A stretch of 35,239 bases of DNA from a virus (Duplodnaviria > Heunggongvirae > Uroviricota > Caudoviricetes). The position numbers are program-made. Positions 18,001-21,000 of this stretch are shown piece by piece. The stretch covers positions 1-35,239 of IMG/VR virus record IMGVR_UViG_2718218139_000010; one strand, written 5' to 3'. How positions within the stretch are numbered: the stretch's first letter is position 1; every line of letters starts with the position of its first letter.

Positions 18001-21000
18001 TGAATCCGCGATTACCCCATATTCCTTCTTGCTGATTGCCCCACCGCACAGGGGGATTCACCATGCAGAAGTGTTTTTAATAAACAGCAAACAAAAAAAT
18101 CAAGCATTATGCAGGCTGTTTCTTTTTATCACCGGCCACAGCAATACCACAATGCCGCAGACCAGCACCCCATCCGCCAGCACCGACATGATTCTGCTGG
18201 TGAAATCCACCATCACCACCAGAAACAGCAGGAGTGCAGCCACAGCCAGGCGCAGTTTTACCGTCACAGGTGATTCTCCAGACGAAGACCCAGAACACCG
18301 GCAATCTCTTCCAGCACCTTGCGCTCTTCCGGCTCAATTTCGCCGTCTGCCTCCGCAATGGCCACCGCCACATCCAGCACATCTTCCGCTTCACGCGTAT
18401 CGTGTTTCACATCCTCGATCTCACGTAACGCGGCACGACGACCAATTTTAAAATTGGTATCCAGCTGACCGATAATGGTTGCGCTAATCGCATTAATTTC
18501 CGAGGTAAACGCAGACAACGCAGGCTGATTACGTAAGACCTGTTCGATCTTCGCTTTCTCGGATGCCTCGCATTCACCATCTGCACAGGCCTCCAGGTAT
18601 GCAGCGTTAATCACCGCCTGTGCCAGATCGCGTTTTTCAAACTTTTTAATTTCCGTTGCCGCTCTGCGGGCTTTTTTTACCAAAAATACCAAACATCGTG
18701 ACGTTCCTTTGGGTGGGTGAGCCAGCACTCAGGAATGATCAGCCCACAGAGACAGTCACACCGACCGTTCCCTATGGCTCCCCCCCCTGAAAGGCTCTGT
18801 GGTTGAATTGCGCCGAGCGTGGCGCGAAGAATTTCGGACATAAAAAAACCCGCTCAGCGGCGGGCCTTGCTTACTTTGCTATCGCGTACAAAATCGGCAA
18901 AATATCAGATTTACATGAAATGTACGCGATTTAATTGATTTTTGCAACATCTCGTCGCAAAAAGGTCGCTTTTTGTTTAGATCTCGTTTTCACAGTGCAA
19001 ATCAAAGATTTGGTGTCCAGAGCCTTAAAAAGATCGCACATCTCACGCCAGTAGTTCGCATAATTATGGCTCCAGTTATCAGGTTTAATTCCACACAGCC
19101 TGGCAAGCTCCTGTCGCTGGTAGCTCTCACGCCCGGTTACCCATCCCCTGACATCCTGCGCCGCCAACCAGATTAATTTTTTCAGGCGTTCCTGCGTTTT
19201 CCCTGCAATTTTTCTGGTACCGGATTGAGCATTAAATTCATTCCACGCCCACTGAGTTATCGCGATCTGATATTCCCAGCAAATGCTGCCACTGTAACAC
19301 AACAGCAACCAGGCTTTATGGTGTTCCTCAAGAGACAGAACTGCCCGTCGCCATGATGATGTCGAAAACTCAACCTGACTTACCAGAGGAATTGACGTCC
19401 CCTTCGCCAGCGATTGTTTCCCCGGGATTGGTGGATTATCCCGCGTGATCATTTTTCCGGTCACCTCATCCCGGTACCGGATTTTTTTACGCCTGTAACG
19501 CCCTGTATCGAACATGGCATTCTCCTGCCAGGCTTCAAGCTGACCTTTTGTTGCCTCACTCAAATCAGCGGTGGCGATAATGAGCTGCTCACGCACAAAC
19601 TGTAAATACTGGTTATTCATGCGCACTCCAGTTCTGTGATTTTTATCCCCAGCCGCCCACCAGAAACGAGCTGACCGCGCACAATATTGATTTCATCAAA
19701 CTGCTCGTCGTCTATGAGAAGTCCGGCATGCGTCAGCGCATCCAGTGGTGCTTTCAGGATATTGTCCAGGTCACGACGGCGCTTATCCGGTGGCTCTGCA
19801 ATAATCTTTATCACCAGCCTTCCGGACAGGTTTAATTTCAGCCGCTGCTGGCGAACAATTAGCGCCACATCACGGCGATAACGCTTTCCGGCTTCCGAGA
19901 TGAAATACGTATTGCCATGACGTCGCCAGTAGGTATTCACCGTCGGCGGGTAAGGCAAAACAAATTCTATGCGTTCAGTCATTCATGCTTTCCACTTCAG
20001 GACACCCGAATTTCTCGCGTGCATTAAAAAACGAATCAGCAACAACAGCTGGCTGCCGTGTTTTTCTTCAAAATCTTTTACCCCGGCGTGCAGTTCGTTA
20101 TGACATTTACGGCACAGCGGAATAACAAACAAATCATCAGCCTTTGTTCCCATCCCTCCCAGTCCATGACCAATGATGTGATGCGGATCATCTGCCTGAT
20201 TACCGCACGTCATGCATTTCTGCGTTTTTACCCAACGCGTGTATACAGGCATCTCTTCCCGTTGTGGTTTCTGGCGCTGGAGATACTGAGCCGGTGACTC
20301 CGGATCAACGGCAATGCTGACCACCGTCTTTTCCTGTGGTGGGTTCTGTTGCTGGTGGACGTGAGGCAGCGGCGCAAGATTTTTTGTGCGCTGCTTCAGT
20401 ATGCTGGTGGCGGTCTGCTCTCCCGGCACGATGTCGCTTTCACGGTACATTGAGCGGATTTTTTCCGCACGCAACCCCAGCGAACGACGTAATACCGCTT
20501 CCGGTAGCGCGTCCGCCACCTGATTGCGGACCGCCCACCAGGATAATTCAGCCAGAGATAATTCACGCTCCTGCGTACCGCTTATTGCGTGACCGATGAC
20601 GTCAATCATCCATGCTGACAGGTTTTGATGAGCAAGTTGCTCGAGTGATTCGGATGTCTGGTCACGCAACTGGTTGTCGCAGTGCCAGCACAACACCATT
20701 GCGCCGGTACCGTAACGATGTATGACGGTTTCACTGTGATGATAATCGCCGTGTGGCCACTGGCAGGATTTAATATGGCGCAACAGCCAGTCAGACAATG
20801 CACCAGCACCACCAGCAGCACGAATCACCCGTTCGTTACTGAAAAACGGCAGTAATGATTTATCCTCCGCCAGCGGCTGGCGAACGGCAGGAACGACTCC
20901 GGACGGCAGACCGCGCATACTTTTCGGTTCCGGTTCCACCAGTACTCTGCCGTTATGGAATACCTGCATGGATTCACGGCCTGGCTTAACGATAACCAGT

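Follow-up and report, generated by a model that had tools for sequence, protein, structure and literature searches.

Does a promoter-like pair of hexamers followed by a GC hairpin, both lying just downstream of a Q-like gene, form the late-gene switch of a prophage, or do these elements belong to a small RNA (sRNA) gene, a plain terminator, or a promoter of another kind? This question is raised by a locus on the minus strand of the IMG/VR virus record IMGVR_UViG_2718218139_000010 (Caudoviricetes), whose 35,239 nucleotides, positions 1 to 35,239, are here called the window. In a preliminary description, a Q-dependent late promoter pR' and its terminator tR' were proposed at this locus. That proposal is supported by the placement of promoter, pause element, and terminator, which are arranged as in the phage 82 literature (PMC5001585, PMC4914094), and by linkage to Q as judged from sequence comparison. 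The locus is very probably a late-gene control cassette (pR', pause, tR') of a lambdoid prophage carrying a Q antiterminator of the phage-82 family. Such a cassette is of a known kind: among phage antitermination switches it falls in the best-studied class, in its phage-82 form. It is assigned to this class by protein family, by features whose positions agree with published descriptions, and through comparative genomics.

Anatomy of the putative pR'-tR' cassette

The Q-like gene upstream encodes a protein of Pfam family PF06323 (E = 2.6e-82; 276 bits, cut-off 25; positions 1-217 of a model of 220). Three families of Q are distinguished, namely Q21 (PF06530), Q-lambda (PF03589), and Q82 (PF06323) (PMC9388147), and the protein of the window matches PF06323 only, neither PF03589 nor PF06530. 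It is 100% identical to a 229-aa Escherichia coli protein named "antiterminator" (P0001) and 61% identical to AntQ of Gifsy-1 (STM2617; annotated as REGQ_BP82-like). The PDB holds no structure of Q82.

The hexamers TTGCAA and TACATT and the 17-nt spacer between them are found on the minus strand just as they had been described. The range first given for the locus, 18842-18930, includes the hairpin, its T7 tail, and the -10 hexamer, but it leaves the -35 hexamer 12-17 nt outside. This hexamer is located inside Q codons and the Q stop codon is located inside the spacer, so that the Q gene and the cis-acting site overlap physically; both therefore move as one recombination unit, which ends sharply about 12 nt beyond the terminator. 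In late promoters of this kind, the Q-binding element (QBE) is located between -35 and -10, and the QBE of 82 pR' and its pause element are contained within -31 to +30 (Wells et al., PMC4914094). By position, the QBE of the window would lie within the spacer between the two hexamers.

Downstream of the -10 hexamer, the strand reads TCATGT, the A at +1, AATC, TGATATTTT (with T at +6, +9, and +14), GCC (from G at +15 to C at +17), GATTTTG, T at +25, A at +26, CGCGATAGCAAAGTAAGCAAGG, and then the hairpin. The late promoter of phage 82 is reported to carry a pause-inducing -10-like sequence with an extended -10 motif, nearer to TATAAT than that of lambda, and sigma70 is engaged there at an RNA length of 21, for which reason the element ends at +14 (Bird et al., PMC5001585). 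A GCC discriminator at +15-17 and an AT-rich stretch follow, and the pause occurs at +25/+26 with U at +25 (PMC5001585). When +1 is placed at 18912, a placement in which the usual distance from -10 to the start was the only free choice, five published features of 82 pR' are in place: the end of the element at +14, GCC at +15-17, the AT-rich stretch, U at +25, and a -10-like sequence that matches better than lambda's.

The GC hairpin with a T7 tail, which had been placed about 50 bp downstream on the same strand, indeed begins its stem 50-54 nt past the -10 hexamer. The stem is formed by CCCGC (18864-18860) and GCGGG (18853-18849) around a 6-nt loop (CGCTGA), AAGG/UUUU pairs can lengthen it to 18868-18845, and the T run consists of exactly seven residues (18848-18842). 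The fold of this terminator has an energy of -12.6 kcal/mol. Coordinates of all elements are collected in Table 1.

Table 1. Elements of the putative late-gene control cassette in the window.
Feature	Position	Strand	Remark
Gene for Q antiterminator, phage-82 family, 229 aa	18931-19620	minus	ATG at 19620; stop TAA 18933-18931; open reading frame (ORF) 18931-19626
-35 hexamer TTGCAA of putative pR'	18947-18942	minus	sequence read; within the last Q codons
Spacer AAATCAATTAAATCGCG, 17 nt	18941-18925	minus	contains the Q stop codon; predicted QBE location
-10 hexamer TACATT of putative pR'	18924-18919	minus	sequence read
Inferred transcription start, +1 A, RNA 5' AAAUC	18912	minus	7 nt past the -10 hexamer
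Putative sigma70-dependent pause element: extended -10-like TGaTATTTT (+6 to +14) and GCC (+15 to +17)	18907-18896	minus	matches the published description of 82 pR'
Extended -10 sequence TGATATTTT	18907-18899	minus	
Predicted promoter-proximal pause, +25 (U)/+26	18888-18887	minus	by homology with 82 pR'; T at 18888
Intrinsic terminator, putative tR': hairpin and T7	18868-18842	minus	listed by the terminator scan
Predicted terminated pR' transcript, about 71 nt	18912-18842	minus	folded; counterpart of lambda 6S RNA and Salmonella IsrJ
End of conserved cassette, join to variable cargo	18841-18830	minus	BLAST matches to E. coli genomes end at about 18832

In the known mechanism of Q82, the DNA-bound protein engages the paused complex with the aid of NusA, and the polymerase becomes resistant to terminators (PMC9388147, PMC4914094). 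Promoter activity, pausing, and Q-dependent read-through in this strain are predicted by analogy, and the events would be as follows. A sigma70 promoter made of TTGCAA, 17 nt, and TACATT, overlapping the last Q codons and the stop codon, would direct transcription from about A18912. Retained sigma70 would re-bind through its region 2 to the extended -10-like element at +6 to +14 and, together with GCC at +15-17, would keep the polymerase paused, in a scrunched state, at about +25. Without Q, the polymerase would escape from the pause, end at the hairpin and T7, and release an RNA of about 71 nt. With Q, the protein would bind its DNA site in the spacer and be loaded, NusA helping, on the paused polymerase, which would then ignore tR' and later terminators and transcribe what follows, from tciA and the nanS-p-like gene to the genes for holin and lysis and beyond. 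If so, the switch would decide transcription of the late region, that is, of the lysis genes and, further downstream, of genes similar to those for type III secretion system effectors; the precise positions of start, pause, and terminator can be used for reporter or transcriptome work.

Conservation of the module and its linkage to Q

The module was followed in both directions. The forward set comprises 80 viral-contig loci selected through the Q protein and two annotated phages selected through DNA similarity, 82 loci in total with 34 distinct sequences. A homologous module is present at the 3' end of Q in all of the 82; TGATATTTTGCCGATTTTGTA is near-invariant among the 34 distinct sequences, and similarity ends about 12 nt beyond the T run. 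The converse set comprises at least 119 viral contigs with the 21-nt core of the module. Directly 5' of this core, an 82-type Q ORF is found in 117 of the 119 (108 full-length and nine partial, among the matches listed), while one of the remaining two (L106) has only a short remnant of the 3' end of Q and the other has too little upstream sequence. In 114 of 116 cases, the core lies 26 nt from the last Q codon, and the Q proteins of this set are 61-96% identical to that of the window. The module is thus linked tightly and reciprocally to 82-type Q genes over some 200 loci. The representative genomes of GTDB gave no match to the exact 21-mer. Among complete E. coli genomes, a 501-nt query consisting of the Q 3' end, the module, and the flanks matches 1,179 of 5,426, about a fifth.

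Conservation is distributed unevenly along the module. Expressed as mean pairwise identity among Q-selected loci only, it is 1.00 for the -35 hexamer, 0.98 for +6 to +17, 0.91 for Q codon position 2, 0.90 for the spacer, 0.83 for the -10 hexamer (where positions 3-4 are free), 0.82 for +27 to +44, 0.80 for Q codon position 3, and 0.51 beyond the T run. No other non-coding stretch is as conserved as the pause element, which occurs once in the window. TTGCAA is invariant in all 34 distinct Q-selected sequences and is found at the predicted -35 position in 117 of the 119 core-selected loci, in which the -10 hexamer takes the form TAnnTT (TATATT in 85, TATGTT in 13, TACGTT in 13, and TACATT in four). 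The spacer types follow the Q clades; the spacer also encodes the C-terminus of Q. Furthermore, the arms of the hairpin change in pairs among the relatives (CCCGC/GCGGG, CCACC/GGTGG, CTGCC/GGCGG, CCTGTC/GGCAGG, and GCCTGC/GCGGGC) and the loops are free to vary. Conservation and covariation, like the anatomy of the sequence, the family membership of Q, and the linkage, are observed directly; conservation and the paired changes of the arms therefore indicate selection on the promoter, the pause element, and the pairing of the hairpin. In these alignments, the promoter and the pause element evolve more slowly than the Q protein.

For the body of the RNA, selection is not detectable in the same alignments. 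No extra constraint was found on +27 to +44, the identity of which is close to that of the synonymous-like third codon positions of Q. A conserved 5' stem-loop in the RNA has no support either: the z-score of the predicted fold is -1.69, the pairs are invariant, and the stem is missing from deletion variants. These variants, of which there are an L080 type (14 loci) and an L036 type (six loci), are without 17 nt from about +19 to +35 (e.g., L080, positions 2170-2260). They retain both hexamers and the extended -10-like element, the sequence at their expected +25 pause site is altered, and their predicted RNAs are 54-56 nt long.

An RNA with a mapped 5' end is known from a homologous site in Salmonella. 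IsrJ, a virulence-associated sRNA, is a 74-nt RNA the 5' end of which was determined by primer extension and which, when carried by a plasmid, is made from a promoter of its own (PMC2330248); in Gifsy-1, the gene order is antQ - isrK - orf45 - anrP - isrJ (PMC4825925). At the end of anrP in Gifsy-1 (L205, NC_010392, 3001-3120), the sequence runs GCGACGTGGTGA, TTGCAA (3013-3018), 17 nt, TATATT (3036-3041), TTATGT, and AAATCTGATATCGTCGCC, followed by a hairpin and a T run. The succession of TTGCAA, 17 nt, TAnATT, 6 nt, and AAATCTGATAT (from 3048 in Gifsy-1) is thus common to both sites, whose identity between the Q 3' end and +11 is 81% (57 nt). The RNAs are similar in length (74 nt and about 71 nt), and an intrinsic terminator stands at the end of both. 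In contrast, the RNA bodies are unrelated beyond about +12, and the Gifsy-1 copy is an orphan, being located behind anrP instead of Q with a short stretch like the Q 3' end before its -35 hexamer, while AntQ itself is followed by isrK. The Rfam model isrJ (RF01393) matches 18915-18844 on the minus strand over its full length in a permissive scan (E = 0.011-0.015), and its first 14 nt, UGUAAAUCUGAUAU, are the same as in the window; with 23.6 bits, below the gathering score of 37, the RNA of the window does not count as a family member under the Rfam criterion. From these comparisons, an orphaned or displaced 82-type pR' seems to have IsrJ as its leader RNA. We found no paper stating this for IsrJ; Sy et al. 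describe a late-promoter leader for IsrK only.

Several points weigh against the assignment as a late-gene control cassette. The hexamers match the consensus at only 8 of 12 positions, which is why a promoter scan of the window omits the pair; of the minus-strand predictions suggested as a check in the preliminary description, the terminator scan lists the hairpin and the promoter scan is silent. Equally good hexamer pairs number 148 in the window against 143±8 in shuffled sequences, and the hexamers alone are therefore no better than chance. The -10 hexamer TACATT is a rare variant, found in 4 of 119 loci, and may be weaker than the common TATATT. The predicted QBE is placed by its published position and not by a match of its own sequence, and likewise the likeness to 82 pR' is one to positional descriptions in papers and not a nucleotide alignment; full-text k-mer searching for the published 82 pR' sequence gave coincidental matches only, including Salmonella SgrS. 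Compared with the inferred +1, the mapped IsrJ 5' end is 2-3 nt further upstream, an offset for which heterogeneity by slippage is a possible source; such slippage is reportedly a cause of 5' heterogeneity at the 82 late promoter. Finally, the prophage is degraded by insertion sequence (IS) insertions and a split terL, so even a working switch no longer controls a complete late operon. On the side of the cassette, a promoter-like pair together with TGnTAnnnT at +6 to +14 occurs only once in the window. It is the context, and not the hexamers themselves, that is decisive for the promoter assignment.

Other explanations of the short RNA and the hairpin

The locus may instead be a stand-alone sRNA gene, the RNA of about 71 nt acting in trans on mRNAs of the host or the prophage, like IsrJ, StxS, or HnrS. 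The full-length isrJ match with its 14 identical 5' nt speaks for such a gene, as do the influence of IsrJ on Salmonella invasion (PMC2330248) and the case of StxS, a terminated pR' RNA with regulatory targets, whose authors propose RNAs of this kind as a general source of sRNAs (PMC7547250). However, the isrJ score is below the gathering score, conservation of the body at +27 to +44 does not exceed that of third codon positions in Q, two natural groups of variants do without 17 nt of this body, and the z-score of the fold is modest. Identity with HnrS, a prophage sRNA of EHEC/EPEC, was rejected: the 15-nt complement of the 3' end of mazF and the seed CUUCU directed against the ribosome-binding site of hha are both missing from the 71-nt RNA. 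We consider a dedicated sRNA gene unlikely; it is, moreover, compatible with a late-promoter cassette, from which the RNA would arise as a moonlighting by-product. A broader form of the idea, in which the pR' RNAs of 82-type cassettes constitute a widespread but unrecognised sRNA family in E. coli prophages, with a 5' end homologous to that of IsrJ and a function in trans on host or prophage targets during lysogeny, likewise seems improbable. If it were true, IsrJ itself would be an orphaned late-promoter leader RNA.

Next, the hairpin may be a plain terminator of the early-right (Q) operon and the hexamers a chance match. The frequency of equally good pairs and the silence of the promoter scan would fit with this, and any intrinsic terminator at this place would also halt unmodified read-through from upstream. 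Chance, however, accounts poorly for an invariant TTGCAA, a -10 hexamer kept as TAnnTT, and a fixed phasing next to Q proteins that are only 61-96% identical. In addition, the extended -10-like element stands exactly at the position of the 82 pR' pause element, and the homologous Gifsy-1 site gives an RNA with a mapped 5' end. This explanation is, accordingly, very improbable.

Sequences of the form TGnTAnnnT can serve as extended -10 promoters without a -35 hexamer. It is therefore conceivable that TGATATTTT, from the best-conserved part of the module, acts as the promoter by itself, with a start near +21, an RNA of about 50 nt, and no role for TTGCAA and TACATT. The 5' end of IsrJ, however, maps upstream of the element and not downstream, and TTGCAA is invariant and held at a fixed 17 nt from TAnnTT. 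In the 82 pR' literature, the element is assigned to pausing at +25 after upstream initiation (PMC5001585). An extended -10 promoter is thus highly unlikely here.

A leader-peptide transcription attenuator, suggested by sub-threshold Rfam matches to Leu_leader and Trp_leader (21.6 bits each against gathering scores of 50 and 41), is effectively ruled out, since these alignments are driven by the terminator hairpin and U run alone and the 71-nt RNA has no ATG and no leader ORF.

Genomic context and comparison with known systems

The module carries no RefSeq annotation. On the 5' side of Q are rusA and a DUF968 gene, and on the 3' side, in the same orientation, are a TerB/TciA-like gene, a NanS-p-like esterase gene, a P21-type holin gene, a DUF1327 gene, Rz, and terminase genes; the site is therefore located at the early/late boundary of a lambdoid prophage. 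What follows the cassette varies by locus: tRNAs, an IS element, lysis genes, a MazF-like toxin gene, or tciA. A 54-aa ORF (18677-18841, minus) has its ATG directly after the T run, and its first 13 nt or so (ATGTCCGAAA...) are common to loci with unrelated cargo, so the start of this ORF may be the edge of the conserved cassette rather than a gene. In the tciA/TerB-like gene, the ATG at 18696 is followed by A7 (18678-18672) in place of the A6 of phage JLK-2012 tciA, which puts the ORF with the TerB domain (18264-18728) in a frame other than that of the normal start. The gene thus seems frameshifted, which could reflect a pseudogene or a sequencing error in the homopolymer. In phage JLK-2012 (L204, 646-1700), the same tciA cargo is found behind a Q of the Q21 family (PF06530), three tRNA genes, and a different terminator. 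By comparison of these arrangements, whole Q cassettes of different families are swapped in front of shared late-region cargo.

Other features of the window are as follows. An IS3-family transposase gene (13743-14561, plus) is inserted in the lysis region, between the DUF1327 gene and Rz, and an IS66 transposase gene is found at 6692-8305 (plus). The large terminase is divided into two ORFs (9123-10127 and 8466-9080, minus). As virulence cargo co-oriented with the late operon, the prophage carries genes for a SopA/NleL-like E3 ligase (1241-3613, minus) and an NleC-type M85 protease (1-987, minus). The interval from Q to the lysis genes is dense in sRNA genes: AgvB (17840-17901, plus, 91.7 bits) and STnc100 (17902-18095, minus, 143 bits), both above the gathering scores of Rfam, stand back to back in the gap that separates tciA from the nanS-p-like gene. 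A DicF match (29411-29462, plus; 55.9 bits against a gathering score of 48) is located in the early-left operon of the opposite strand, as in K-12 Qin. The features of HnrS lie at 11722-11739 on the plus strand, with CTTCT, the complement of the hha ribosome-binding site, at 11722-11726 and CTACCCAATCAGTAC, perfectly complementary to the final 15 nt of mazF from K-12, at 11725-11739, followed by a hairpin (11745-11766) and T7. Probably, the stretch 11708-11773 (plus) holds a copy of hnrS, a prophage sRNA of 66 nt by which hha is repressed; the late operon is on the other strand.

Lambda, phage 21, Stx phages, and Qin work by the same logic, using different Q families and pause elements. The pR'/6S/tR' system of lambda resembles the layout predicted for the window in a constitutive promoter located after Q, a sigma70-dependent promoter-proximal pause, and a QBE between -35 and -10 (PMC9388147, PMC4914094, PMC7547250), and its logic, too, is that of a terminated short RNA and Q-dependent read-through. 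It differs in its Q family (PF03589), in a pause element of AACGAT and GGG at +1 to +9 with the pause at +16/17, and in a tR' far from pR', termination being at +193 compared with about +71 here (PMC4914094). A cassette of the lambda type (PF03589) or the 21 type (PF06530) was rejected for the window in view of its PF06323 Q and its pause element of the extended -10 sequence and GCC.

StxS of the Stx1 and Stx2 phages is likewise a short RNA produced in lysogeny from a late promoter under antitermination control in prophages of pathogenic E. coli (PMC7547250). Unlike the RNA of the window, StxS, 74 nt long, is released by RNase E from a transcript of 258 nt that is terminated at tR', and it binds Hfq and acts on defined targets; the two RNAs were not found to be related in sequence.

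Phage 82, phage 21, and Qin had been put forward as comparators in the preliminary description, and of these it is phage 82 that fits, while Q21 belongs to PF06530 and Qin to the lambda family. Downstream of ydfT (quuQ) in K-12 Qin, there is also a succession of TTTGCA, 17 nt, TAAAAT, a pause-like element, and, soon after, a hairpin (AAAACCCGCTGATGAGCGGGTTTT). The pause element of Qin, however, is lambda-like (AACGATGGG), and Qin was set aside as a comparator because YdfT falls in PF03589 and has no detectable similarity to the Q of the window. This lambda-type late promoter layout of Qin (L084, K-12 MG1655, 4250-4490, minus) is unannotated, and it fits with the place of YdfT in PF03589.

With respect to phage 82, the window departs from the majority of relatives in the minority -10 variant TACATT. 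It agrees with phage 82 in a Q of PF06323 and a promoter directly after Q; in both, the extended -10-like element ends at +14 and is followed by GCC at +15-17, AT-rich sequence, and U at +25. A short terminated transcript is predicted here, and short RNAs from the phage 82 late promoter have been reported (PMC7547250).

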